A DNA stretch of 64,000 nucleotides from NCBI RefSeq assembly GCF_053078305.1, contig NZ_CP166879.1; one strand, written 5' to 3'. The translations under genes and the position numbers were made by a program. Under the pieces are notes generated by a model that did not search any database, had not been told where the DNA came from, and was given only the letters and a program-made list of their open reading frames with translations. Positions 1,860-51,940 of the stretch are shown here, one piece after another (the stretch's first letter is position 1; every line of letters starts with the position of its first letter).

Positions 1860-1947
1860 GGAAGTGTGGCCGAGCGGTTGAAGGCACCGGTCTTGAAAAC
1901 CGGCGACCCGAAAGGGTTCCAGAGTTCGAATCTCTGCGCTTCCGCCA
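1860..1947 (+). tRNA. serT: tRNA-Ser (anticodon UGA), intact; 3' 60 nt is the attL core
   Basis: GGAAGTGTGGCCGAGCGGTTGAAGG...CGCTTCCGCCA, long variable arm, anticodon loop cTTGAAAa. Confidence 0.9.
1888..1947 (+). repeat. attL core: 60-bp direct repeat, identical to 51881-51940
   Basis: Exact 60-nt match read directly in sequence; mismatch immediately upstream (1887 c vs 51880 t). Confidence 0.85.
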
Positions 1948-5154: not shown

Positions 5155-5295
5155 TTACTGCTTACACTGTAAGAACGCCGCAATCTCCGCGCCCGCTATC
5201 CGGAACCGGAACTCGCACAGTGAACTGTGGGTGATCCAGATAATGAGCACTACCGTGATACAAATCACGGTGGTTTTTAACGGTTTTTGCGACAT
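5155..5295 (-). CDS. hok: Hok/Gef-family type I toxin (46 aa), not in ORF track
   Basis: Own translation: MSQKPLKTTVICITVVLIIWITHSSLCEFRFRIAGAEIAAFLQCKQ; TM helix plus LCE-R-R...AAF signature; AAGGAG RBS 9 nt upstream. Confidence 0.6.
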   Translation of the reverse strand: MSQKPLKTTVICITVVLIIWITHSSLCEFRFRIAGAEIAAFLQCKQ

Positions 5296-5493
5296 AAACG
5301 CTTGCTCCTTTTACGGAGAGGCGCTAACCTTCAATTTGCTGAAGATCGAAAGTCAGGCCTCGGGTTAAACATGAATGTTTGTCCGGGGCCTTCGTCTTTC
5401 CGGCCTTCAGGTGTTCCCTCCGGCCATCAGCCAAAGGCACCCGCGCATACTGTACGGTTTTTGTCTCCTTCCGGCAATCCCGGGGCGCGATGT

Positions 5494-22121: not shown

Positions 22122-22324
22122 AACCTCACTCCCAGCGGACGACGGCGACGGCGGGTTGTCCCCAGTACCGACTCCGCATCATTGATCGCACGGTTAAGCT
22201 CATCCAGAGAAGCCGCCGTATATTCAATTCTGCGACCATCTTTCTGGACAGACACCACCCGTTTACCGGTTAATAAATCAAGGCGCGCCTGACGCAGCGC
22301 CTGCAGTTCAGCGACTGTAACCAT
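22118..22324 (-). CDS. W: Head-tail connector W
   Basis: 68 aa, ...LTGKRVVSVQKDGRRIEYTAASL... matches lambda W. Confidence 0.8.
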   Translation of the reverse strand: MVTVAELQALRQARLDLLTGKRVVSVQKDGRRIEYTAASLDELNRAINDAESVLGTTRRRRRPLGVRL

Positions 22325-24236
22325 TCACTCCTCCGGACAGCTTCGCTGCCAGTTCTTTCAGGGTTGGCCGGGTCGTCTCTTCTTCCCGGGATTTTGCCAG
22401 TACAGCCAGATCAAGCTGCCAGCGTTGCACGGACACACGTAATGCCGCGTAGGCATACACCAGGCAGTCCAGCGCTTCGTTACGCCGCTTTTTGTTATCC
22501 CACAGCAGACGCATCTTTCCTTTTTCCCACTTCTCCACCAGTTCTTCCGCCACCAGTTGCTGCGCCTCTGTCTGCGAAAAAATCTCCGGATCATCAGGAA
22601 AACGGATGGCATACGACGTGGCTTCATCCGCAGGCGTGGGATCGGCTTTCATACGGGCATAGAGAATTTCTTTTGCGGTGTCTGTCCCCACTTCACACAG
22701 ATACACGCCCCGCTGATTGCGGGTTTTTGGCATGGTGATCACCGGCTTGCCATAGACAGATGCGCCTTTTACCGGCAGCACCCGGAAAACACCGTGTTTT
22801 TTTGATCTCTGATAAACAATTTCACCATCGATCCCCCCGGTGTCCCAGCAGACACGGGAAATGGTCATTTCGGTACCGTCTGCATGGCGGTATTTTTTGT
22901 TGATCGCCGCATCCACACGTAACAGCGTCTCTTCCTCATCAGGACGCCCCATAATGATGATTTTATCCACCAGAAAGGCTTCCTCTCCCGGAGCCCATCC
23001 CCAGACATACATCTCAAAACGGTTACGCTGCGAGTCAATGCCCGCCGTCAGATAAACCACCCGGGCAGGCACCGCTGCCGTGTAATGCACGACCTTATCC
23101 ATCAGCACCTGGTGATCGAGTTTTTCGCCCACGGCCTCTTCCCAGGTCTCGCCCAGCGTGGTGTTCACAAAAGTTTTCAGGCCGTTGGGATCTTTCAGTG
23201 CATCCAGCCAGTCATAGACTATCTGTACCCAGGTGGTGAACGGACTGTACGCCGTCCAGATATGGAAAGTGATGGAGCGCGGCGGCGGAATTTCATTACC
23301 CGCAGCGCTGAAAAACGTCAGGCCGTCACGGGTCCACATGCCCGTGTTTTCACAGATCCACCGCCCGTTGCTCTGGTCAAGCTCAGACTGATGGATCACG
23401 CAGCCATGATGTTCACAGAGATAGAAAACGCTTTCGGGGCTGTCCTTCTCCCATTTAAGGCCAAAAGGCGTGGACTCATCGCCAAATTTCAGATACTGCT
23501 CCTCCCCACAGTGCGGGCAGGGCACATAAAAACGCATGAAATGCGCCGACTCGTTGGCCGCTTTTTCGATCTGGCAGGAGCCTTTTATTTTTGGCGTCGA
23601 GCCGCGAATGGATTTTGGCCATACCGAGCCCTCAATACGCTTATCCCCCAGCAGGGTTGGCGAGCCCTCTTTTTCGACATCCGGCTCGAACGAGGAAAGT
23701 TCGTCATAGCAGACCACGTCCACGGATTTTTCACGGTAGTTTTTTGCTGCCGCACCACCCAGGCACCAGAAGCCCACCCCCGATGAAAAGCGTTTCAGCG
23801 TGAGAGTATTGTCACGATGTTTACGACCCAGCCACGGGGAAAGATCTTTCAGGCATGGCACGTCCCGAATCGTCGCCTCCACGTGAGACTTCATAAAATC
23901 TTCAGCGGCAGAATCCGTGGGCTGAAAAAGCAGACTGTTTCGGGATTTATGCTCAATAAAATACCCGACCACCCCCAGCAACATCTTTGTATAGCCAACA
24001 CGGGCAGATTTAATCAGATTAACAGTGCGGATCTGATCATTCCCCATGCTGTTCATGATGGCGATCTGGAATGGCAGCGTTTTCCATTCTCCGTCACCGT
24101 ATGAGGAGTCTTTAGGCAAATAATAATTTTGATCAGCCCATTCAACTGCCGTCATCGGTACAACTCTGACCAGAGGCTGCAGCGCAACCGAAACGGCAGC
24201 CATCATATTATTCAGTTGTTGCTCTGATATATTCAT
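22308..24236 (-). CDS. A: Terminase large subunit A; start trimmed to ATG at 24236
   Basis: MNISEQQ...TAVEWADQNYYLPK...GSVWPKSIRGSTPK...CPHCGEEQYLKFGD... collinear with lambda A. Confidence 0.9.
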   Translation of the reverse strand: MNISEQQLNNMMAAVSVALQPLVRVVPMTAVEWADQNYYLPKDSSYGDGEWKTLPFQIAIMNSMGNDQIRTVNLIKSARVGYTKMLLGVVGYFIEHKSRNSLLFQPTDSAAEDFMKSHVEATIRDVPCLKDLSPWLGRKHRDNTLTLKRFSSGVGFWCLGGAAAKNYREKSVDVVCYDELSSFEPDVEKEGSPTLLGDKRIEGSVWPKSIRGSTPKIKGSCQIEKAANESAHFMRFYVPCPHCGEEQYLKFGDESTPFGLKWEKDSPESVFYLCEHHGCVIHQSELDQSNGRWICENTGMWTRDGLTFFSAAGNEIPPPRSITFHIWTAYSPFTTWVQIVYDWLDALKDPNGLKTFVNTTLGETWEEAVGEKLDHQVLMDKVVHYTAAVPARVVYLTAGIDSQRNRFEMYVWGWAPGEEAFLVDKIIIMGRPDEEETLLRVDAAINKKYRHADGTEMTISRVCWDTGGIDGEIVYQRSKKHGVFRVLPVKGASVYGKPVITMPKTRNQRGVYLCEVGTDTAKEILYARMKADPTPADEATSYAIRFPDDPEIFSQTEAQQLVAEELVEKWEKGKMRLLWDNKKRRNEALDCLVYAYAALRVSVQRWQLDLAVLAKSREEETTRPTLKELAAKLSGGVNGYSR

Positions 24237-24714
24237 CGAGTAAATCCGGTAATTTATCCCCTGCCCGCGCACACTGATTTGCGCCCTTTGCAATAAGGGT
24301 TTTCAGATGGTCAATATGACGTGGCGTTAAATCCGGGAACTGTCGCTGCATGGATAACGGAATGGAATCAAGCGTACTGGACAATGCCATCGCCAGTTTG
24401 CTGAGGGCGAAAACGCAGAAGTCTGAATCGATGAGCTTACCTTCGGTTACCTGATTTTTAAGTTTTTGAGCTACAGCCTGTTCTTCTGTCAGTTCAGCTC
24501 TGGCCCGAAGCAGCCTTTCCTCCAGTTCTCCTCCGTCATCAGGTGTTCTCTGATTGTGTTGTCGCCGCTCGCGATCTATCTCCAGTACAGTTTTAACGTC
24601 ATATAAAACTTCCCTCCCCCGACGTTCAACAGGAGGAACGCCCCATTTATCAAATGCCTGAACAGAGATACCGATGGAGGAGGCCATATCACTTTTATTC
24701 AATAAAAAGGCCAT
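24208..24714 (-). CDS. nu1: Terminase small subunit Nu1; start trimmed to ATG at 24714
   Basis: ...VLYD...LPLSMQRQFPDLTPRHIDHLK... matches lambda Nu1 C-terminal half; immediately downstream of cos. Confidence 0.8.
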   Translation of the reverse strand: MAFLLNKSDMASSIGISVQAFDKWGVPPVERRGREVLYDVKTVLEIDRERRQHNQRTPDDGGELEERLLRARAELTEEQAVAQKLKNQVTEGKLIDSDFCVFALSKLAMALSSTLDSIPLSMQRQFPDLTPRHIDHLKTLIAKGANQCARAGDKLPDLLDEYIRATTE

Positions 24715-24930
24715 CTCCTCTCCATAAGTCATCGATAAAAAGCGAAACAACAACCATGTGTTTTTGCAAAACCATTTGATATCATTGACATTTTTCGCAT
24801 TGACGACATCAAAACACATCGTAAGGTTGTTGTATTGATTTTATTTTCACCTTACTTATCAAGTAGATATACCAAACAATTAAACAACAACCACCCCCTC
24901 AAAAAATCTCATAAATAGTGAAAACGCGCG

Positions 24931-24942
24931 AGGTCGCCGCCC
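24931..24942 (-). other. cosN cohesive-end sequence (GGGCGGCGACCT on minus strand)
   Basis: rc of 24911-24942 = GGGCGGCGACCTCGCGCGTTTTCACTATTTAT, near-identical to the lambda left end. Confidence 0.85.
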
Positions 24943-25201
24943 CGTAACGGGTCCATATGCCGGAAAGGACCCGAGAAAATGATAATGATTATCAGTTGCA
25001 ACAAAATCCAGTTTCTTCCACCATCGCACCGGACCAGCGACCATGAGGGGACAACGCCGCGCTCCGTTAACGCGGTAAACCCCGGTGTGTATCGTTTTTG
25101 ATTATCCCCGCACACTCGCGCAGAGGAGTCTCCCTGTCGGGCTGCGGTCTCTGTTAATGCAGGAATACGGCGACAATACCGCGCATGGATAATAAGGTCG
25201 C

Positions 25202-25426
25202 TCAACACACTGGCTGTAATGCAGCCGATACCATGCGGCATTTAGCTGCATTCATCGTACACTCAACGGTTAGCTCTTCATTCGTGGCATTCACCTGAAA
25301 GGTCCGGGAGTGTAATTGCGTACATTTACCACTGAACGAACCTTCAACAAGAACACGACCACACTGCAAAATACGGAACGGAATTGTTCCCTGAAAAGGC
25401 TTTACGGTTACCAGTAATTTCTTCAT
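25202..25426 (-). CDS. Hypothetical 74-aa protein between Rz and cos
   Basis: MKKLLVTVKPFQGTIPFRILQCGRV...; GGAG RBS 5 nt upstream of ATG at 25426. Confidence 0.4.
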   Translation of the reverse strand: MKKLLVTVKPFQGTIPFRILQCGRVLVEGSFSGKCTQLHSRTFQVNATNEELTVECTMNAAKCRMVSAALQPVC

Positions 25427-25449: not shown

Positions 25450-25917
25450 CTAGTTAATACACTGAGTGCGGATATATTCCTTCGCCCCTTCCAGCTGCTT
25501 CTGCATTGTCATCAACCGTTCTCTGAGGATGAAATAATCCCGTTCAGCGGTGTCTGCCAGTCGGGGGCCGGTTGCATTATCCACGCCGGAGGTGGTGGGG
25601 GCTTCACGCACGGAGCCTGGACAGGTGGCTTTAACCCGCAGGCGCTTACGACCAGCGGCAACATCAGCACGCAGAGTTTCATTTTCAGCTCTCGCATCGG
25701 CTAATTCCCTCGAGTATTTAGCATCGAGCGCAGCAACATCGCGCTGGCGCTGCTGCATATCAGTAATGGTTGCGTTTGCCAGCTCCAGCTCTCTGGCTTT
25801 TTTATCGCGCTGCGCTTTGTAGGTGATGGCGTTATCGCGGTAATGATTCAGCCCCAGACTAAGCGCACCACAGGCCACCAGCAGGACAATAATCACCACA
25901 CACAGAACACGGTTCAT
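25450..25917 (-). CDS. Rz: i-spanin Rz
   Basis: ...[45 protein letters not shown]... matches lambda Rz. Confidence 0.9.
25512..25697 (-). CDS. Rz1: o-spanin Rz1 lipoprotein, embedded in +1 frame of Rz
   Basis: ...[27 protein letters not shown]... matches lambda Rz1; lipobox VSAC. Confidence 0.85.
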
Positions 25918-26849
25918 ATCACCACCATTTCACTGTTTTCTTTTTCCAGACGTTTTTTTGCAACAGCGAAATACCGGTCATCCTTTTCTATTCCGGTAAA
26001 CCGTCTCCCCGTCCGGATACATGCAACACCTGTTGAACCACTCCCCATAGTAAAATCCAGTACCCTGTCGCCAGGGTTGCTGTACGTCTGAATCAGCTCT
26101 TCCAGTAATGCAACTGGCTTCTGGGTCGGATGCCATCGCTCCCGCTCCCGCGCGTACTCCAGAATATTTGCGCGGTATTTTTTCCCCTGAGGGAGATTAA
26201 AAACCACAGTGCCGTAACCGGAATTCACTTTGCACATTTCTTCATATGTCATGAAACCCGGCATACGGTCGATACCAAAGCGTTTAATTAACTCGTTGTA
26301 CGTATCCTGTGAGCAGAGGGAAAACTGGACTGTGTTCACGCGAAAAAAATGCTCTGCCCGACAGTGCCCCAGTGTTTTGTTAACTTCCTTGTCTGTCCTG
26401 TGGCCAATGAAAGAAAGGATATTTCGGGCGTACTCCCTCAGCGGGTGGTTTTTCTCACTGTCATATTTTTTCCGGAAAACAACGATATCCTCGAATAAAG
26501 ATACAGGTGCTTTTTTTACTGAAAGCGGGTTGGGGAAATGCTCCTTCTTCCACACCATACGATATAAAAACGGCAGGTTTTTATCCGCCAGAGTAATCAT
26601 CGTGCTTGTATGCGGCTCCTGGCTGAACATGACCAGCACACCGCCCACCCTCAGCAGTCGTTCGCACTGTGTGAAAATATCTTCAGGATTTAAGGCATCG
26701 TCCCATGCTGTCGTACTCTTATCCCATGTACGGAGTGTAAGCCCTTTAATGGTTCCATACGGCGGGTCACATAAAACCAGGTCAACACTTCCCGGTAGTA
26801 ATGAAGGCATAACATCAAGACAGTCACCGGAATACAGTACACATTTCAT
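25914..26849 (-). CDS. DNA methyltransferase, beta-class (DPPY, N6-adenine or N4-cytosine); stop overlaps Rz start
   Basis: [10 protein letters not shown] near N-terminus; HPTQKP and FTMGSGSTG (SAM-binding) near C-terminus; ATGA overlap with Rz. Confidence 0.75.
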
Positions 26850-29798: not shown

Positions 29799-31766
29799 TC
29801 ATGCCGCGACGTCCGCGTTGTTCACTTCCACCTTCACACTGTCAATCAGCAGCGTATATGCCGCCGCCTTTGATATGTCTGTCAGTTGCAGTTTGTCCGC
29901 CGACCCTGATGCCGGAGATTTCACCAGTGTGAACGGTGTACCCCGTTTCTCATCCAGTACCGGCATCACCTGAATGCTGTTGTTTCCGGCAAACTCAAAA
30001 GCCAGTGTGTGCCATCCGTTATCAAAGACCCCGAACGTATCCAGCTTCGCATTCTGCTTCTTGTGGTACATCGCGTTCAGGTTCGTCGCATCCGTCTGCA
30101 GGAAGAAGGACATCAGCATGTCGTTGCCTTCCTCTGACAGCGTCACTCCCTCCGGCAGGGACGGCAACTGCCAGTAAATACCCAGGGCAAACTGATTCGG
30201 CACCAGTGCGCCCGGCACCTTAAACCGCACGCTCACACGTCCGCCTTTCTTCAGCAACTCTGCTCCCTGCCCGGCGGCATCATGCTCCAGAAACCAGATG
30301 TGGCTTTCCGGTTTGTTCAGTTGCAGGGCCTTACCACCGGTGGCACCCTCATCACTGACCACAGCCTCAGCGATGTTTTTATCAACACTGTCTCCGCTCG
30401 CCGGTTTGTGATAATAGCGCCAGCCCTGTGATGCCAGGTCTTCACCGGACGCCAGCAGACTCATCAGGGTTCGGTTACTGACCGGGGCTTCCGGCTCTCT
30501 CTCCGGGCCTTCACCGGAAGGTCCGGTGGGCTTCACCGTATCAGGCTGTTTTCCGGTAATGAATTCAGCGGTTCTCCCGGCATGCACCAGAATCGCCGTT
30601 GCCAGACGGTCGGAAATAATCCCACGGCGTGCCCAGGTGCTGAAATGGCTGGCCCTGTCCACAGATGTCCAGGTCTTCTGGTCATTACGCCACTTTGAAC
30701 CGTAATAACCGACGGCTTCCAGGTCCGGGTCTTCTGCCGGGTCATTGGTCTGCACATTCGCACCATTCTCATCCGTCATTAACGGTACAAAGAAAATGTT
30801 CTGCGACTCCTTACCCTTATACCCTCCGTATACTGATGCATACCCTTCCGCATGACGCTGCTTCCAGAAATACGTTGTGTCCCCGCAAATCCACGGTACC
30901 GTTGATGCGCTGCCTCCTGTGCACTGTGATGCCTGACCGGCAAGGTCCGTTCTGAACTGATTCACCATCGCACTAAACAGCCCCGGATGCTGCGCATGCG
31001 TCCCCACTGCCGCATCACCTTCTCCCTGCATCCACACCACCGCAAGCAGACGGTTTTTCGGGTTCTTCGCCAGTGCGGCTTTAGTCCGGCTCACCAAATC
31101 CTGATACAGCGGCTTACCCACACCCCAGCGCAGTGAATTTTCCGATGCACCGGCTGATTCGCTGTATGTGCCGTCTGCACCCGTTGTGAATGCCGAAGCA
31201 CCACGGCAGCACGGAACCAGCAAAATGCCCGCATTCGCCGGTATAAACGGCAGCAGTTTTTTGGCGATATGCAGCCCCTGCCCCACGGTTCCGTACTGCC
31301 CCTTTGACAGGTCCGCTTTCGGATGGTTAAGACGGCTCATGTCCTGCACATCATGCAGACAATGGTCCGCCGGAATAATGTCGTTATACTTACAGGCGGC
31401 ACCGCCCGGTGTCACCGTACTGCGACGCGCCAGCTGCTTAATACGCGGGTCCGGACGGTCATATGTCTCCGGCAGCGGAAGGCCTTCACCATACGACATG
31501 CCGTTTGACTGCCCCGCCAGAACAACAACAAAGTAATACTCCGGTTCGCTGGTGGCGCTGATAACTGTGCCTTCTCCATCCGACGGCTTCACCACCACAG
31601 GTGTGGTGACATCACCTTCCGCCGCAATAGCCTGCATCAGGGTATAAGGCGTGATGGCCACCGGACTGCCAAATGGCTGCCACCCCTCCTTCAGTTTTTG
31701 AGTCAGTCGCTCCGCAAGGTCTGACGGCGACGCCGCCCTGACCACGTCATAGTGTTTAAATGCCAT
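29799..31766 (-). CDS. nanS-p: NanS-p-like sialate O-acetylesterase (DUF1737 N-terminus + SASA/SGNH domain)
   Basis: VVLAGQSNGMSYG catalytic-Ser motif; 655 aa; occupies the position seen downstream of stx in Stx phages. Confidence 0.7.
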   Translation of the reverse strand: MAFKHYDVVRAASPSDLAERLTQKLKEGWQPFGSPVAITPYTLMQAIAAEGDVTTPVVVKPSDGEGTVISATSEPEYYFVVVLAGQSNGMSYGEGLPLPETYDRPDPRIKQLARRSTVTPGGAACKYNDIIPADHCLHDVQDMSRLNHPKADLSKGQYGTVGQGLHIAKKLLPFIPANAGILLVPCCRGASAFTTGADGTYSESAGASENSLRWGVGKPLYQDLVSRTKAALAKNPKNRLLAVVWMQGEGDAAVGTHAQHPGLFSAMVNQFRTDLAGQASQCTGGSASTVPWICGDTTYFWKQRHAEGYASVYGGYKGKESQNIFFVPLMTDENGANVQTNDPAEDPDLEAVGYYGSKWRNDQKTWTSVDRASHFSTWARRGIISDRLATAILVHAGRTAEFITGKQPDTVKPTGPSGEGPEREPEAPVSNRTLMSLLASGEDLASQGWRYYHKPASGDSVDKNIAEAVVSDEGATGGKALQLNKPESHIWFLEHDAAGQGAELLKKGGRVSVRFKVPGALVPNQFALGIYWQLPSLPEGVTLSEEGNDMLMSFFLQTDATNLNAMYHKKQNAKLDTFGVFDNGWHTLAFEFAGNNSIQVMPVLDEKRGTPFTLVKSPASGSADKLQLTDISKAAAYTLLIDSVKVEVNNADVAA

Positions 31767-31963: not shown

Positions 31964-31993
31964 GCCCGCATCTCACCATGCGGGCTTTTTTTA
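31964..31993 (+). terminator. Rho-independent terminator on + strand
   Basis: cccgcat-ctcacc-atgcggg hairpin followed by cttttttta. Confidence 0.5.
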
Positions 31994-32000
31994 TCCATAA

Positions 32001-32238
32001 GAAAGCCCCTCCGGAGAGGGGCTGGAGTAGCGCTATGTACCGTTCATTACATGATGCCGGGTGCCTCCCGGTGAGTTCAGCCCGGTGCCACCGAACCCGC
32101 GTCATTCTCGCTAACGATCATCAGAGACCATTCCGTACACCAGCCGCCCCTCCGCACAGGGGGATTCATCATGCAGAAATTTTTTAACAAATTCTCAGTC
32201 GGGAAGACAACCTTCAACTGACTGAATTGTGAGCAACA
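32001..32238. repeat. Structured repeat unit 1 (~238 bp), diverged copy of unit at 32489-32723
   Basis: Shared blocks: gcccctccggagaggggc hairpin, gccgggtgcctcccggtgagttcag, cccctccgcacagggggattca-ATG, ttttaacaaa, ctgaattgtgag. Confidence 0.7.
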
Positions 32239-32488
32239 TAGCATTTAACGGGGAACCTGTTTTCTGCAGTAAAAAGGCCCACCGGAGCGGACGGGCCTGG
32301 AAGGATAGCGGTCATGTGATGCCGGTTTCCCGGTAACTCAGCACCGGTATCTGAGTCAACGTTTTCTCTACTGGGTCATTTCCGATACGCCCTGCCTGCT
32401 GACAGGCTTTCATCACATCTGAAAATATAGCACCCTGACTGATACTGTAGTACCCAAGGTTCCAGAAACTGTGATGTATCCGGCACAG

Positions 32489-32723
32489 AAAAGCCCCTCC
32501 GGAGAGGGGCTGACGCTGCGTATCTGTATCATCATGCGCATGGTGCCGGGTGCCTCCCGGTGAGTTCAGTATCAGCACCTGAACCCGCACAGAAAGGATA
32601 AGGGATGTAACCAAACACCTGTCGCTGATATGCCCCTCCGCTCAGGGGGATTCACCATGCCAGTTTCTTTTAACAAACTCCCCGCAAATCAGACAACTGT
32701 CAACCGTCTGAATTGTGAGACAT
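32489..32723. repeat. Structured repeat unit 2 (~235 bp)
   Basis: Same block order as unit 1; hairpins preserved by compensatory changes (ccgcaca vs ccgctca loop). Confidence 0.7.
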
Positions 32724-32789: not shown

Positions 32790-33725
32790 TTAACGTATGT
32801 GCACACAACCTGAACCGGCATCAAAAAACAAACCGTGCACTGACAGAAAACGGGAAACCTCCGTCCGCTGATCATCACTCATTAAGGACCACACAAAGGC
32901 GTTATGCTCATCTTCAAGTTTCCGTCTTCTTGTTTGCCTTACAAGCAACTCAGCCGTCACCTGTACAATGTCAATGACCACCTTCTCTTCAGCAATGTAC
33001 GGCCTGTTCCAGTTCTCTGTGTTAATCTTCTCCGTCACCGGCGCTGACTTTTTGCAAGTTTCCCCATTAAACCCGACGCCATAAACAACAACATCATCGC
33101 TTTGCTTTTCGTTATCAATAATGACGAATAATACAGAAACCGATGTATCAGCGAACCCGCCTGAAATCTGAACCAACTCAACAACGCGGTTGCCAAAATA
33201 CTGACGCATTGCCAGCTCACCACGCCTGTAACCAACCCCGGGAAAGCACAAAAAAAATGAAAATCTTGCCTTCATACTCGCCAGAACATAAAACGCGTCA
33301 TCCAGAACACCGGAGGTCTTTTTATAAGGCATCATCGCTGAAATCTTCTCCCTGATATCCGCGCTCTGTGCTTTGTACTGTAGCGAAAAAGGCGGATTCA
33401 TGATGACACAATCGAACGTGTCCGTGTCACTGACATCATCTATGGCGTTGAAGAAATTTTCATTGACCGTCTTCACTGTGGCATCCGGAAAGTTATCCGG
33501 GATATGCAACAACGGAGAGGCCTGTATATCCACAGCATACAGACTTCCCACCGTGAGAAACTGCTCCAGTTGCCCGGAGCCACACGCACCATCAAAAATA
33601 CTCAGGGGCAGATCACCACAATATTCCCGCACTTTTTCAGCGACAAACCGACGCAAAGGAACGGACGTGATGTACTCTGCGTATTTTCTGGCGACTTCGC
33701 GATTATTGGATTCCTGAAAAACCAT
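32790..33725 (-). CDS. Putative N6-adenine DNA methyltransferase, gamma-class-like (motif I before NPPF)
   Basis: IFDGACGSGQL (SAM-binding) then VIMNPPF; 311 aa, too small for a separate target-recognition domain; lies at stx-equivalent locus. Confidence 0.6.
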   Translation of the reverse strand: MVFQESNNREVARKYAEYITSVPLRRFVAEKVREYCGDLPLSIFDGACGSGQLEQFLTVGSLYAVDIQASPLLHIPDNFPDATVKTVNENFFNAIDDVSDTDTFDCVIMNPPFSLQYKAQSADIREKISAMMPYKKTSGVLDDAFYVLASMKARFSFFLCFPGVGYRRGELAMRQYFGNRVVELVQISGGFADTSVSVLFVIIDNEKQSDDVVVYGVGFNGETCKKSAPVTEKINTENWNRPYIAEEKVVIDIVQVTAELLVRQTRRRKLEDEHNAFVWSLMSDDQRTEVSRFLSVHGLFFDAGSGCVHIR

Positions 33726-33810: not shown

Positions 33811-33887
33811 TGGCGCGTTGTACTGGATTCGAACCAGTGACCGATTGCTTAGAAGGCAATTGCTCTGTCCGACTGAGCTAACAACGC
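33811..33887 (-). tRNA. argO: tRNA-Arg (anticodon UCU), argO-like
   Basis: Cloverleaf folded by hand: acceptor GCGTTGT/ACAACGC, anticodon loop CTTCTAA, T-loop GGTTCGAATCC, CCA end. Confidence 0.75.
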
Positions 33888-33900
33888 ATGATGCTGATAA

Positions 33901-33977
33901 TGGACCGCCATCGGGGACTTGAACCCCGCGCAGCCAGCTTCGAAGGCTGGCGCTCTGTCCCGATGAGCTAATGGCGG
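33901..33977 (-). tRNA. argN: tRNA-Arg (anticodon UCG as read), argN-like
   Basis: Acceptor CCGCCAT/ATGGCGG, anticodon loop CTTCGAA, T-arm CGGGGTTCAAGTCCCCG. Confidence 0.65.
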
Positions 33978-33986
33978 TATGTGATA

Positions 33987-34062
33987 TGGTGGCCCTTGCT
34001 GGATTTGAACCAGCGACCTGGCGATTATGAGTCGCTCGCTCTCACCACTGAGCTAAAGGGCC
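33987..34062 (-). tRNA. ileZ: tRNA with CAU anticodon, ileX-like (tRNA-Ile2 via lysidine, or Met)
   Basis: GGCCCTTTAGCTCAGTGGTGAGAGC...CTCATAA...GGTTCAAATCC...CCA; close to E. coli ileX. Confidence 0.75.
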
Positions 34063-34102: not shown

Positions 34103-35161
34103 TCATCCGTTCTGACTGGCTAAATCCTGAACTTCCCTGACCGTCTGCTCAAAACGTTCAGTCTCCAGCTCAACGCCAGTTGCACGACGCCCCAGCGCCA
34201 TCGCGGCTTTGACTGTCGAACCCGACCCCATGAAAAAATCTGCAACCAGGTCCCCCGGACGACTGCTCGCGCTGATTATCTGCTGCAGCATTTCTGCCGG
34301 TTTTTCGCACGGATGTTTCCCGGGATAGTACTGCACCGGTTTATGCGTCCACACATCCGTGTACGGCACCTGCGCCGTCACACCGAAATACCGCCGCAGA
34401 TGCTTATATTCACTCTGCAGTTCCGCATACTGCCGGTTCAGTGAAGTATATGTCTCCAGCAGCTGGTGGTGGGGCTTTTCCAGTTCACCCCGCTGATGCT
34501 TCTCTTCTGCCACCCGGGCAAACAGCGCCTGTAATTTCAGATAATCACTTTCGTTCGGCAGCTGCCACTGACTGGCACTGAACCAGTGCGACACCATGTT
34601 TTTCTTTCCTGTGGCATCCACTATCTGTTTTGCCGTTATCCCCAGGGCAGCGCGCGCATCACGAAAGTAAGCAATCAGCGGGGCCATCACATGCTGTTTC
34701 AGTGCCCTGCCCTTCGCCTCATACCCGGCATCTTTCGGACGATACGGCCCCTGATAATGTTCCGCGAACAGAATGCGCTCTGTGGCGGGGAAATACGCCC
34801 GCAGGCTTTCCTTGTTGCACCCGTTCCAGCGTCCGGACGGCTTTGCCCAGATGATATGGTTCAGCACACTGAAGCGTTCACGCATCATGATTTCAATGTC
34901 AGACGCCAGGCGATGACCACAGAACAGGTAAAGACTTCCGGCAGGTTTCAGCACCCGCCAGAACTGCGCCAGACACTGGTCCAGCCACTTCAGGTAATCA
35001 TCGTCGCCCTTCCACTGGTTATCCCAGCCCTCGGGCTTCACTTTAAAGTATGGCGGGTCTGTGACTATCAGATCGACAGAGTTTTCCGGTAAGGTCTGGA
35101 TAAATTCCAGGCAATCAGCGTTGATTAACTCACAACTGGATATTTTTACAGTATTAAGCAT
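34103..35161 (-). CDS. DNA methyltransferase, beta-class (DPPY ... FxGxG), 352 aa
   Basis: DLIVTDPPYF near N-terminus; DFFMGSGSTV near C-terminus. Confidence 0.75.
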   Translation of the reverse strand: MLNTVKISSCELINADCLEFIQTLPENSVDLIVTDPPYFKVKPEGWDNQWKGDDDYLKWLDQCLAQFWRVLKPAGSLYLFCGHRLASDIEIMMRERFSVLNHIIWAKPSGRWNGCNKESLRAYFPATERILFAEHYQGPYRPKDAGYEAKGRALKQHVMAPLIAYFRDARAALGITAKQIVDATGKKNMVSHWFSASQWQLPNESDYLKLQALFARVAEEKHQRGELEKPHHQLLETYTSLNRQYAELQSEYKHLRRYFGVTAQVPYTDVWTHKPVQYYPGKHPCEKPAEMLQQIISASSRPGDLVADFFMGSGSTVKAAMALGRRATGVELETERFEQTVREVQDLASQNG

Positions 35162-38690: not shown

Positions 38691-38846
38691 TTACTTCTCA
38701 GATTCGTAGTCTACGAAGACAGCAACCTCCGTCTGGCCGGTTCGGATTCGTACCTCGCAGAGGTCTTTCCTCGTTACCAGTGCCGTCACAACAACGGTAA
38801 TACAGATGACGATCAGGGCGATTAACATCGCCTTTTGCTGCTTCAT
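38691..38846 (-). CDS. hok: Hok-family type I toxin (51 aa)
   Basis: MKQQKAMLIALIVICITVVVTALVTRKDLCEVRIRTGQTEVAVFVDYESEK; track ORF extends upstream (mok-like reading frame). Confidence 0.8.
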   Translation of the reverse strand: MKQQKAMLIALIVICITVVVTALVTRKDLCEVRIRTGQTEVAVFVDYESEK

Positions 38847-39136
38847 AGCCTGCTTCTCCTTGCCTTTCGGCACGTAAGAGGCTAACCTACGTTTGTGAAG
38901 CATAGATTGGGCCTCAGATTAATGTTAAGCGTCCTGCAAGACGCGTAATGTTAACTGGGGCTTTTCTCTGTCTGCCTTACGGCGGCATGCCCGAGGCAGA
39001 CAGCCTCAAGCACCCGCAGCAATTCTACTTAACTCTTCTTTCCCCGCAAACCGTTTTTATCCCCAGCGGCAAATCGAATACACCACCAGCGCCACCGCCA
39101 TTGCAATACCAACATTTGAGAAGGCCTCAGGCCAGC

Positions 39137-46475: not shown

Positions 46476-46933
46476 AAAGTGAATTTTGTGATGCGGTGAA
46501 TGCGGCTAAGCGCACGCGGAACAGTTAAAACCGTAAAGTGGTCTTTTACGGGGCGTAACGGGCATACTTCTGTATTCCGGCGTTAATTGTTAACTGGTTA
46601 ACGTCACCTGGAGGCACCAGGCACTGCATCGACAAAGTTCACTTCGGTGATGAAAGGTAAGAGAAAATGTTGAATGTAGCTATTGAAAACCAGAACGGGT
46701 GGAATTATAGTGCACCTGCACCTCATAAAGCGGGTGCCGGGATTGCTACCCCGATGTTCATCATGGCGCATAACCGCGCTCAGGCGTTTTTTTTATGCGT
46801 AATGCACAGCCACATTCAGATTATGGTGGGGCGTGCAGGGCAGCCGCAAGGCTGGCCGGGTTCCATGATGACCGGTTGTAGCAACCCTGTGCGTCTCACC
46901 ACCCATGAGATTGCTACCTCCGGTGGTGAGTTA

Positions 46934-47518
46934 ATGAAATTCATCATGGAGGCTGCCATCATGGCTACTATCCCTGCCCTTTCTCACCCTGAAATTACTA
47001 TCGCCAATGGGCGTGCTGTTACATCCTCTTTAGCTGTTGCCGAGTATTTCCGGAAACCACACAAAGATGTACTGGCAAAAATTTCACGTCTAGACTGTTC
47101 AGCAGAATTCACTGAGCGAAATTTTTCGCCCAGTGAATATACCGACTCAACCGGGCGCAAACTCCCTATGTACCAAATCACCAAAAACGGCTTCGTTTTC
47201 CTGGTGATGGGCTTCACCGGCAAAAAAGCCGCTGCATTTAAAGAAGCCTACATCGCTGAGTTCGATCGCATGGAGAAAGAACTGCGCCAGAATAACGCCC
47301 CGTCTCCCGACAAAATGATTCACGGGGACGGACGTACCCTGGTTATCCGTCTCGACGAACACGGCAATATCAAATTCACTGAAACCGTTCCTGATGGTGC
47401 AATGGTCTGCACCCTGGATACCTTCCAGTTTTATCTGGAGAAACAAGGCTGGACTCTTGTAAACCGGAGCGCAATTAAAAATATGACTGTGGAGCAATTA
47501 CTAAAAATTCATTGTTGA
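46934..47518 (+). CDS. rha: Rha-family phage regulatory protein (start uncertain: 46934 or 46961)
   Basis: ...ITIANGRAVTSSLAVAEYFRKPHKDVLAKISRL...PMYQITKNGFVFLVMGFTGKKAAAFKEAYI... Rha domain. Confidence 0.65.
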   Translation: MKFIMEAAIMATIPALSHPEITIANGRAVTSSLAVAEYFRKPHKDVLAKISRLDCSAEFTERNFSPSEYTDSTGRKLPMYQITKNGFVFLVMGFTGKKAAAFKEAYIAEFDRMEKELRQNNAPSPDKMIHGDGRTLVIRLDEHGNIKFTETVPDGAMVCTLDTFQFYLEKQGWTLVNRSAIKNMTVEQLLKIHC

Positions 47519-47994: not shown

Positions 47995-50433
47995 ATGAGC
48001 ACTGATAAAGAAGAATTTTCGCTATATTGCGAAGCAAAAAATGACAAGGTCAGAAAACGCCTTGGGATTAAAGGAGGTTTTTACTGGACTACAGCAAAAA
48101 AATTATCTGTTGCCATCTCACGGTGCGTTGTTGCAATGGACGAGGCAGGCTACGACGCTGATGATTTCAAAAAACCTGTCCGCGTCCATTTCCCCGTTGT
48201 GAATGACCTTCCACCGGAAGGCGTGTTTGATACCGAATTCTGCAACCGCTATGAAAAAGGCGGGGAAGATGGCATCACAATGATATTTATAGCGCCTTCC
48301 CCCTCAGTTCAGGACAAACCAGCCAGCACTGACAATACCAACGTCAATGGCGAAGACATGGCTGAGATTGAGGATAATATGCTCCTGCCGATTTCCGGTC
48401 AGGAACTGCCCATTCGCTGGCTTGCGCAACATGGCAGCGAAAAACCGGTAACGCACGTTTCACGGGAAGAACTTCAGGCATTACATATCGCACGAGCTGA
48501 AGAACTGCCGGCTGTTACTGCCCTGGCTATTTCCCACAACACAAAGCTGCTCGACCCGCTGGAGATTCGCGACCTTCATAAACTGGTACGCGACACAGAC
48601 AAAGTTTTCCCTAATCCCGTTAATTCCAGTCTGGGGTTAATGACTGCTTTTTTCGAAGCATACCTGGACGCTGACTATACCGATCGAGGTCTGCTGACAA
48701 AAGAGTGGATGAAAGGAAATCGTGTTTCTCGCATCACCCGCACGGCTTCCGGTGCAAATGCCGGTGGCGGAAATAAAACCGATCGTAATCCTGACTTAGT
48801 ACACACCCTCGATACTCTGGATGTGGAGGCTGCAGCAGCCACACTTCCGATGGATTTTAATATTTATGAAATACCCGTGAGCGTTTATCGTCGCGCAAAA
48901 GAAATCGTCCTGAAAAAAGAAAGTCCGTTCAGGGAATGGTCCGCAGCACTTCGCGCAACCCCTGGTATCCTGGACTATTCCCGCGCAGCTATTTTTGCAC
49001 TTATCCGGAGCGCCCACCCTGAGTTTTATCACTACCCGGGACGCCTTCAGGGGTATATCAATGCCAACCTGACAGAAACTGATCACGAGAATCCCACAGC
49101 TGAAACGCTCATGGCTGCCCGGCATACACCGGAAAAAGATATCCTGGAAGAAATTAACGGCGGACTGGCTGCTGAGTGCAAAACAGAAGAAGAAAAAAAT
49201 GATGAAGAAAACCCGCAACCATCTGGCGCAATGGCAGATGAACAGGCAACGGCTGAAACAATGGCAGCGGATACAGTTGAACATCATCAGGACCCGCAGC
49301 CGCTGGATGACAAGTCACAGGTAAAAGTTACTGCTGAAGAAGTAAATAAAATTATGGAGGCAGCAGACATCAGTCGACCAGATGCCGACAAATTGCTTGC
49401 CGCTTCTCGTGGTGAGTTTGTTGAAGGGATTAGCGACCCGAATGATTCGAAATGGGTTAAGGGGATTGAAACCTGCGATTCTGTGAACCAGAACCAGCAA
49501 GAAACGGAACAGAACGGTCAGAAAGCGGAACAAAACAGCCCAAATGCGTTACAAAACGAGCCAGAAACGAAACAACCTGAACCAGTAGTGCAACAGGAAG
49601 AGGAAAAAGTTTGTACCGCATGCAATCAGACTGGTGGTGGTAACTGCCCTGATTGTGGCGCAGTGATGGGGGACGCAACCTACCAGGAGACATTCAACGA
49701 AGAAAGCCAGGATGAAGCCCGGGAAAAAGATCCGGAGGAAATGGAAAGTGCCGGACTCCCGAACAAGGAGTGCACCGAAGGCGATCAACATGCCAATGGC
49801 AATAATGAAACAGGCGAGACAGCAAATCCCTTAATTAAGGTGAACGGTCATCGTGAAATCACATCCACCAGCAGGTTATGGCACCATCTGATGATTGACC
49901 TTGAAACAATGGGCAAAAATCCTGACGCACCAATAGCCTCAATAGGCGCTGTATTTTTCGATCCACAAACCGGAGAGCAGGGGCCTGAATTCAGCAAAAT
50001 AATTGATATGGGTACATGTGGCGGCACTGTAGACATAAGCACCATCGAATGGTGGCTTCAACGCTCTGGCGAAGCCCGTGCCGCCATTTTAGCTGATCGA
50101 ATACCGCTTGATGATGCGCTTTTACAATTACGGGAATTTATAGACGAAAACTCCGGTGAGTTTTTTGTTCAGGTCTGGGGAAATGGAGCCAACTTCGACA
50201 ACGTGATTTTACGCCGTTCATATGAACGGCAGGAGATCCCCTGCCCGTGGCGTTACACCAATGATCGTGATGTAAGAACGATTGTTGCCCTGGGGCTGGT
50301 GATGGATTTCGATGCTCGAAGTGTCATCACATTTGAGGGTGAACGCCATAATGCCCTGCACGATGCGCGTTACCAGGCAAAATACGTTTCAGCTATCTGG
50401 CAAAAACTGTTCCCGAATCAGGCTGATTTTTAA
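47995..50433 (+). CDS. Large early-left protein: RecE-like N-terminal region + acidic linker + Cys4 zinc ribbon + C-terminal DEDDh 3'-5' exonuclease domain
   Basis: C-terminus MIDLETMG ... WGNGANFDN ... [10 protein letters not shown] (Exo I-III motifs); [16 protein letters not shown]; N-terminal blocks recalled as RecE-like. Confidence 0.6.
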
Positions 50434-50499: not shown

Positions 50500-50751
50500 A
50501 TGTACGAATTAACTCTATCGCCAGCAGAAATTCAAGAGATCACGAGATACGAACGGTATACAAAACAGCAACAACAGTTAAGGTTGCACGGTATCCCATT
50601 TGTACCCGGTCCTAAAAACGAACCAATAGTTCTTCGCAGTGATGTCCCGCGCGGACTGACTGCGATACCGAAAGTATCTGAACTGGTTTCTGCTGACCCC
50701 GATTTTGAGGCGCTGAACAATGGGAAGACCAAGAAAAAACAAAAAAGATAA
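50500..50751 (+). CDS. xis: Putative excisionase
   Basis: Small basic protein immediately upstream of and overlapping int. Confidence 0.5.
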   Translation: MYELTLSPAEIQEITRYERYTKQQQQLRLHGIPFVPGPKNEPIVLRSDVPRGLTAIPKVSELVSADPDFEALNNGKTKKKQKR

Positions 50752-51739
50752 TGCACTACCGCCACGTGTTAGATCGAATGGTTACAGTTACGTATGGAAA
50801 CCCGAAGGAAGCACAAAAACTATAGGGCTAGGAAGAGTGCGGGAAACCAGCATAGCTAAAGTCTGGCAGAATTATGAACTGGAAAAAGCAAAACGCCACA
50901 ACATAATGACCGTCGCTAAATTATGGCACATGTTTATGGATTCCCCCGCATTTACAGAACTGGCCCCCAGAACCCAAAAAGATTATCGGCAACATCAGAG
51001 GGCGTTACTGGCAGTCTTCGGAAAAGTACTGGCTGATAATGTAAAAATTGAGCAGGTAAGAATTTTCATGGATAAACGGGGGATTGAGAGCAAGACCCAG
51101 GCAAACCATGAACTGGCAAGTCTCAGTCGTGTATACGGGTGGGGATATGAGCGTGGATATGTGAAGAATAACCCATGCAAAGGAGTCAGGAAATTTACGC
51201 TTAAAGCCCGCACTGTTTACATCACAGATGAACAGTATGCGGCGATATATGCGGAAGCAATACCACAGTTACGCATTGCAATGGAGATATCCTATCTTTG
51301 TGCGGCAAGACTCGGTGATGTGCTCGAGCTGAAATGGCAGGATATTATGGATAAAGGAATCTACATTGAGCAAAACAAGACCGGCACCAAACAAATCAAG
51401 GAATGGTCTCCACGATTACGAACCGCGATCCAGTTAGCCAGAAATGTATCTTCAGGCACATGTGAATATGTGATCAACACAACCAAGGGCGGGAAGGTCA
51501 TAGCTAAAACGCTAAACAACTGGTGGAACCAGGCTAAACACGCAGCCGAGAAAAAATCCGGCGTCCCGTTTGGGTGCAATTTCCATGACATAAAAGCCAA
51601 AGGAATATCAGATTACGAAGGAAGCAGTCGCGACAAACAGATTTTCAGTGGACATAAAACAGAAAATCAGGTGTTGATTTATGATCGTAAAACAAAAATC
51701 ACGCCGACACTGGATTTGCCACTTGTGGTCAGCAAGTAG
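50720..51739 (+). CDS. int: Tyrosine integrase
   Basis: 339 aa; catalytic R (AARLGDV), H-x-x-K and terminal HKTENQVLIYDRK (Tyr) motifs; adjacent to attR. Confidence 0.85.
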   Translation: MGRPRKNKKDNALPPRVRSNGYSYVWKPEGSTKTIGLGRVRETSIAKVWQNYELEKAKRHNIMTVAKLWHMFMDSPAFTELAPRTQKDYRQHQRALLAVFGKVLADNVKIEQVRIFMDKRGIESKTQANHELASLSRVYGWGYERGYVKNNPCKGVRKFTLKARTVYITDEQYAAIYAEAIPQLRIAMEISYLCAARLGDVLELKWQDIMDKGIYIEQNKTGTKQIKEWSPRLRTAIQLARNVSSGTCEYVINTTKGGKVIAKTLNNWWNQAKHAAEKKSGVPFGCNFHDIKAKGISDYEGSSRDKQIFSGHKTENQVLIYDRKTKITPTLDLPLVVSK

Positions 51740-51880: not shown

Positions 51881-51940
51881 CGGTCTTGAAAACCGGCGAC
51901 CCGAAAGGGTTCCAGAGTTCGAATCTCTGCGCTTCCGCCA
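51881..51940 (+). repeat. attR core: 60-bp direct repeat (displaced serT 3' fragment)
   Basis: Identical to 1888-1947. Confidence 0.85.

Follow-up and report, generated by a model that had tools for sequence, protein, structure and literature searches.

The cos site described here lies in a lambdoid prophage carried in the window, by which we mean the whole 64-kb stretch of DNA that was analysed. The ends of the prophage are marked by the following features:

1860-1947: intact tRNA-Ser(UGA), at the tail-fibre end
1888..1947, plus strand: att repeat at the tail-fibre end, formed by the 3' 60 nt of tRNA-Ser(UGA); an exact 60-bp direct repeat
50720-51739: integrase, at the opposite end from the intact tRNA
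51881..51940, plus strand: att repeat at the integrase end, an exact copy of 1888-1947

The unit from repeat to repeat measures 49,993 bp, or 103% of the 48,502 bp of lambda; the packaging range of lambda is roughly 78-105% of genome length. Full-length ORFs are present for integrase, exonuclease, a Q-like antiterminator, endolysin and Rz, and for TerS, TerL, W, portal, protease, capsid, tape measure, J and tail fibre, in an order that agrees with that of the annotated prophage in E. coli IBS28. To judge from its sequence, the prophage is apparently intact and competent. The description of the regulatory and lysis modules as Qin-like, made in the first-pass annotation, holds for a few genes and nothing broader: similarity to Qin is patchy (74-92%) and covers the endolysin, ydfU, hokD, ydfA and the dicF region.

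Many of the top DNA matches are to Stx phages, and we considered whether the prophage is itself Stx-converting. The idea was rejected: a methyltransferase is encoded in the stx slot, and stx itself is absent. The slot follows a trio of tRNAs with Arg, Arg and Met anticodons (33811-34062) and precedes a nanS-p-like esterase gene (29799-31766), and its occupant is a 311-aa putative N6 DNA methyltransferase (32790-33725, minus strand). Further methyltransferases are encoded at 34103-35161 and 25914-26849, which makes three such genes in one prophage. The moron region between the methyltransferase and esterase genes also holds two full-length STnc100 sRNAs (Rfam RF02076; 164 and 135 bits) at 31993-32203 and 32483-32689, both on the minus strand. 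The plus strand at 46718-46906 carries isrK (RF01394) and, directly after it, a C4 antisense RNA (RF01695), both overlapping the start of a 283-aa ORF (46667-47518); this locus looks like a P1/P7-type antisense-controlled antirepressor module in a lambdoid prophage. Two sok antitoxin RNAs of the hok/sok type, at 38841-39015 and 5284-5442 (minus strand), also lie inside the prophage, one in an early region 92% similar to the hokD region of Qin and the other between J and the tail-fibre gene.

For the cos region we number from the cut, with bp 1 at window position 24942 (window coordinate = 24943 - bp) and the circularised lambda cos (J02459) as reference. The phage is mapped along the minus strand, and hence 24911-24942 corresponds to bp 1-32 of the predicted left end. 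From upstream of the cut to the terminase genes, the region contains:

24960..24972, minus strand: cosQ block GGGTCCTTTCCGG, 13/13 identical to lambda 48473-48485
24943..24949, minus strand: left flank of cosN, CGTTACG, the predicted last bases of the right end of virion DNA; GTTACG is 6/6 identical to the lambda right end
24931..24942, minus strand: cosN cohesive end GGGCGGCGACCT, a predicted 12-nt 5' overhang; 12/12 identical to lambda and 10/12 to N15
24901..24930, minus strand: lambda-like right flank of cosN (bp 13-42); bp 13-40 are 24/28 identical to lambda
24208..24714, minus strand: small terminase TerS, 168 aa (Pfam Phage_Nu1, E = 1.4e-21)
22308..24236, minus strand: large terminase TerL, 642 aa (Pfam GpA_ATPase and GpA_nuclease)

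A single copy of the 12-mer GGGCGGCGACCT is found in the 64-kb window, at 24931-24942 of the minus strand. Identity to lambda is 30/32 over bp 1-32 of the predicted left end and 18/20 over the 20 nt beside cosN, which bears out the reported lambda-matching cosN with about 20 nearly identical flanking nucleotides. The mosaic context claimed for the site was likewise borne out. The lambdoid prophage is a mosaic, and cosN lies directly upstream of its terminase genes, which are of the Nu1 and gpA families. We give no credence to the idea that a lambda-like 12-mer arose here by chance and lacks function. Its only attraction is the shortness of the 12-mer, and it is countered by the absence of GGGCGGCGACCT from all 100 dinucleotide-preserving shuffles of the window (0/100), by the canonical position of the site between Rz and TerS, and by the presence of cosQ and a structured cosB. 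Among 80 related loci, GGGCGGCGACCT is the commonest cosN, found in ~66 of the 71 loci with a cosN-like site.

[quoted passage not shown] Of the features of a lambda-like cos, the sequence shows a 12-nt cosN, a 7-bp cosQ at the expected distance (about 17-30 bp) upstream of it, and adjoining genes for a Nu1-family TerS and a gpA-family TerL. Conservation of cosQ is also stated in published work (PMC4669245).

Two other features of this segment were seen. Just upstream of cosQ lies a palindrome, TGATAATCATTATCA (window 24980-24994, minus strand; bp -52 to -38), which is the same in lambda and mostly kept in related cos regions. It resembles what we take to be the Fur-box consensus, GATAATGATAATCATTATC; no part played by it in cos function is known to us. 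A 110-aa ORF (24909-25241, minus strand) crosses cosQ and cosN and stops 22 nt beyond the cut, so that it is unbroken solely in circular or prophage DNA. It shows a weak partial PHROG match (residues 20-64, to an 'Rz-like spanin' family) and is without annotation in IBS28 and other relatives. We rejected it as a gene; it is probably spurious.

Past bp ~42 identity to lambda is no higher than background (15/35 over bp 41-75). The sequence between this point and the terminase genes contains a different set of elements, which we assign to cosB:

24882..24892 (bp 51-61), minus strand: R3-type putative TerS site, GGTTGTTGTTT; the same sequence is found at bp 50-60 of N15, and lambda R3 lies at bp 53-68
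24857..24869 (bp 86-74, bottom phage strand), plus strand: IHF-like core TATCAAGTAGATA, the putative I1 equivalent between R3 and R2; one mismatch to WATCAANNNNTTR
24825..24833 (bp 110-118), plus strand: inverted R2-type site, read as ACAACAACC on the phage strand; lambda R2, also inverted, lies at bp 108-120
24745..24755 (bp 188-198), minus strand: R1-type site, GGTTGTTGTTT; lambda R1 lies at bp 155-166
24714 (bp 229), minus strand: TerS ATG; bp 191 in lambda

Three copies of GGTTGTTGT(TT) thus occupy bp 51-61, bp 110-118 (inverted) and bp 188-198. In the 64-kb window GGTTGTTGT occurs four times, with three of the four occurrences within 148 bp of cosB in direct, inverted and direct orientation; no copy was found inside the TerS gene. 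A tripartite cosB is expected to have three R sequences, the middle one (R2) reversed relative to R3 and R1, and this arrangement is present. The spacing of R3, I1 and R2 agrees with that of lambda nearly to the base pair (within 2 bp), and the R sequence is entirely different. R1 lies 33 bp farther from cosN than lambda R1. An A/T-rich tract is found upstream of the candidate IHF core TATCAAGTAGATA. In lambda itself, candidate IHF cores are seen at bp 86-74 and 91-79; one of them, with two mismatches a weaker candidate than TATCAAGTAGATA, shares strand and position with it.

The putative R sites resemble the R sequence of phage N15 (NC_001901), which carries GGTTGTTGTTTAAT at bp 50-63. The R3 sequence common to the two falls within R3-N15, which was set by block mutagenesis at bp 48-59, GAGGTTGTTGTT (PMC4669245). 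The corresponding prophage sequence, GTGGTTGTTGTT at bp 49-60, is 11/12 identical to R3-N15 with a 1-bp shift. By sequence, then, the predicted cosB is the R3-I1-R2-R1 layout of lambda made from the R sequence of N15.

A scan of IMG/VR with TerS yielded 405 relatives, from which 80 loci were fetched. Across 47 distinct related cos regions the R3 sequence GGTTGTTGTT is invariant, and little or no variation is seen in the TTGATAAG core, R2 (ACAACAACC), R1 (GGTTGTTGT) and the cosQ block, with spacers down to ~72-77% identity. Retention of the R and I1 motifs while the spacers diverge is what functional protein-binding sites would be expected to show.

The ORF finder placed the start of TerS at 24819 (203 aa), which we rejected as too long. 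The start at 24714 (168 aa) is preferred because it is preceded by a Shine-Dalgarno sequence, GGAGAGGAG, because PGAP annotates this 168-aa protein in IBS28, and because the resulting length equals that of N15 gp1. TerS and lambda Nu1 share 36% identity and differ in the recognition helix. Identity to N15 gp1 is 48% overall and ~85% (34/40) over residues 1-40, where the putative recognition helix, ISVQAFDKW, placed by alignment with that of Nu1, is identical in the two proteins. Residues 81-168, on the other hand, are 90% identical to TerS of PhiR12. The protein is thus composed, as far as these alignments indicate, of an N-terminal DNA-binding domain of N15/Monarch type and a C-terminal half common to other E. 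coli lambdoids. A search of the PDB with the TerS sequence gave no match. TerL, which we take to be the enzyme that nicks cosN, shares 66% identity with lambda gpA along its entire length, and both proteins start with MNIS.

These observations bear on a reading implied by the first-pass annotation, namely that the whole cos, including the part recognised by terminase, is lambda-specific and interchangeable with that of lambda. The segments listed above do fit such a reading (cosN, 12/12; cosQ, 13/13; bp 13-40, 24/28), as does the 66% identity of TerL to gpA. However, cosB shows no similarity to lambda past bp ~42 (15/35), its R repeats are GGTTGTTGT rather than of the CGTTTCC type, and TerS is only distantly related to Nu1 (36%), with a recognition helix of its own. 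Moreover, lambda terminase packages N15-specific DNA at a level ~10^-3-fold that of its own DNA (PMC4669245). Lambda-type R sequences and a Nu1-type recognition helix are both absent, and a lambda-specific cos, already contradicted by the sequence, appears very improbable. The designation of the site as a lambda-type cos therefore stands for cosQ, cosN and ~30 bp of flank and fails for cosB, on which packaging specificity depends, and for the TerS DNA-binding domain, both of which are of N15/Monarch type. The expectation of lambda packaging specificity is corrected accordingly, and the N15/Monarch group is predicted instead.

What was found fits a known type. Feiss et al. (2015) described a second group of prophages, 'exemplified by Monarch'. 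In these, cosB contains three R sequences, the second (R2) in inverted orientation and separated from R3 by an IHF site; rR2 is lacking, and the recognition helix does not differ from that of N15. R3-N15 and R3-Monarch are without similarity to R3-21 (PMC4669245). The locus shows a match to R3-N15 at a similar distance from cosN, and its putative TerS recognition helix is the same as in N15 gp1. Placed by the published description and by direct comparison with N15, the cos is predicted to be of the Monarch-group type, and the combination of a lambda cosN with an N15 cosB is an ordinary hybrid that has already been described.

Published packaging yields allow some extrapolation. On N15-specific DNA, the lambda and 21 terminases gave yields of ~10^-3 to 10^-4 (PMC4669245). 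The reverse combination, an N15-type terminase acting on lambda DNA, worked at about half efficiency (PMC4669245, Table 6). By extension, the lambda and 21 terminases would not package DNA of this prophage, and the prophage terminase may package that of lambda. If the phage belongs to the N15/Monarch specificity group, it follows that lambda-based cosmid and helper systems are not expected to package it.

Sharing of N15 specificity by the Monarch group was only 'suggested' in the original work (PMC4669245), and it is conceivable that the prophage embodies a fourth packaging specificity, related to that of N15 yet not interchangeable with it, owing to six TerS substitutions and the tripartite architecture. 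Indeed, 6 of the 40 N-terminal residues differ from N15 gp1, including residues 27 and 31, beside the helix-turn-helix and in the presumed wing. Against this, ISVQAFDKW is identical and the R3 core matches R3-N15 at 11 of 12 positions. We regard a fourth specificity as improbable. Were the tripartite Monarch-type cos to prove distinct from that of N15, it would add to the three lambda-like specificities documented so far. Membership in the N15/Monarch group remains our preferred reading.

The whole 1.2-kb cos/TerS region is found at at least 95% identity in 59 of 5426 complete E. coli genomes, and partial matches occur in 2113 E. coli genomes; the cos region of E. coli IBS28 is 99.2% identical to that of the window. 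Among 50,697 deposited phage genomes, none has the TerS N-domain at 60% identity or more, and none represents an isolated phage using exactly the same cos. Among the matches listed for deposited phages, the best full-length ones to TerS are Pseudomonas phages (42-47%); N15 stands at 48%.

The best DNA matches among phages, to PhiR5_1, the PhiR12 phages and Stx1a phages, all end at query position 249-250, that is, at window ~24901 or bp ~42. PhiR12_1 and PhiR5_1 are 88-100% identical to the prophage from upstream of cosQ to bp ~42 and 40-50% identical thereafter, and PhiR12 returns to at least 88% identity from about TerS residue 85 on. The two phages carry tripartite cosBs of their own, PhiR12_1 (L087) with R sequences of the CATGTCCGGTT type and a TerS N-terminus of VATQTEVARHLSLTDRQLRRLQK, and PhiR5_1 (L088) with R sequences of the ATGTCGTTTCT type and a Nu1/21-like TerS N-terminus. 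Homology with phages of other cosB types, as seen in these alignments, stops at bp ~42 to the right of cosN. Conversely, upstream of TerS in seven loci (L055-L059, L061 and L074), a cosB of the Monarch type sits beside other cosN sequences, and in one further locus (L085) a simple cosB resembling that of N15 is accompanied by a different cosN-like region again. The cosN-like sequence reads ...CACCG GGGGTCGGTGGA CGCGC in L056-L059 and GGGCGGCAGGCG in L061. In sum, the cosQ-cosN backbone occurs with at least three cosB types (that of the prophage, of PhiR12 and of PhiR5_1), and the cosB type of the prophage occurs with at least four cosN types.

Swaps of cosN and cosB in both directions indicate two separately exchangeable modules, one made up of cosQ and cosN and the other of cosB together with the DNA-binding domain of TerS. 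There is precedent in lambda and 21, which share cosQ and cosN and differ in cosB (PMC4669245). Given this, a lambda-identical cosN in a mosaic genome is to be expected and should cause no surprise. A more specific proposal is that cosB and the TerS DNA-binding domain form a discrete cassette of ~430 bp (~24470-24900), a specificity module that is often exchanged and has apparently fixed junctions at bp ~42 and TerS residue ~85. We offer this only tentatively and consider it rather unlikely in this strict form. If true, selection against cross-packaging by co-resident lambdoid prophages, or against piracy by PICIs, may have driven exchange of the cassette.

The distribution data also bear on whether the site is used. 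Many lambdoid prophages of E. coli are defective, and the absence of the TerS N-domain (at least 60% identity) from all 50,697 deposited phage genomes could suggest a relic cos in a prophage that no longer makes virions, in which case there would in practice be no packaged genome end. Yet all cos subsites are intact and conserved, as are the att repeats, and the size is packageable. The ORFs for terminase, portal, protease, capsid, tape measure, J, tail fibre, lysis, Q, exonuclease and integrase are full length. The same cos/TerS is carried by 59 of 5426 complete E. coli genomes, and relatives of TerS were found in 405 IMG/VR stretches. For these reasons we think a relic cos unlikely.

The reading we favour, to which we assign a probability of roughly 85%, is that the window contains an apparently complete lambdoid prophage of 49,993 bp with a lambda-type cosQ and cosN, ~30 bp of lambda-like flank, and a tripartite cosB of N15/Monarch type. 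Some points count against it, namely the mismatch in the IHF core, the displacement of R1 by 33 bp, the 1-bp shift of R3, and the 6 of 40 TerS residues that differ from N15.

The analysis shows the anatomy, homologies and conservation of the site and an intact gene set; how the site would work, if the prophage is inducible, can be proposed by analogy with lambda. After excision and rolling-circle replication, dimers of TerS would dock their winged helix-turn-helix on R3 and the inverted R2, an IHF bend at bp ~74-86 would bring these two sites together, and R1 would stabilise the complex. The gpA-type TerL, anchored ~47 bp away on cosN, would then introduce nicks staggered by 12 nt. The left end, 5'-GGGCGGCGACCT, is expected to run from window position 24942 toward lower coordinates, and the right end, ...CGTTACG, to finish at 24943. 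Packaging would proceed through the head and tail genes and halt at the next cos of the concatemer, with cosQ (24966-24972) presumably needed for termination. The 'precise genome end' previously ascribed to cosN is in this respect a sound prediction: the site sets the expected virion ends (left, 24942; right, 24943) and a genome of 49,993 bp, although its practical value is small.

Comparison with known systems places the locus as follows. As judged by the published description, the prophage shares with Monarch the lambda-like cos, the tripartite cosB, an R sequence matching R3-N15, the N15 recognition helix and a TerS gene without rR2. With N15 it shares an identical R3 core (GGTTGTTGTTTAAT), a TerS of 168 aa and the same 29-nt overlap of the TerS and TerL genes. 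N15 differs in having a simple cosB (R3 only), a gene 1 that starts at bp 89 and an accessory rR2 inside this gene, and its cosN departs from that of lambda at bp 9 and 12, whereas the prophage cosN is that of lambda. The prophage, for its part, is set apart from N15 by its tripartite cosB, the TerS start at bp 229, the R3 shift of 1 bp and a TerS only 48% identical overall. With lambda it has in common cosN (12/12), the cosQ block (13/13), bp 13-40 (24/28), a gpA/Nu1-family terminase and the gene order, but the R sequence of lambda is of the CGTTTCC type rather than GGTTGTTGT, and R1 and the TerS start lie 33-38 bp farther from cosN in the prophage. The pattern is that of the lambda/21 paradigm, in which the same cosQ and cosN occur beside another cosB and the TerS N-domain that goes with it, these two being exchangeable as a unit; the cassette here is that of N15/Monarch and not that of 21, which is set apart by published description. 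The locus thus provides a clean natural case of the modular cos of the Feiss laboratory, with cosQ and cosN conserved and cosB and the TerS N-domain swappable.
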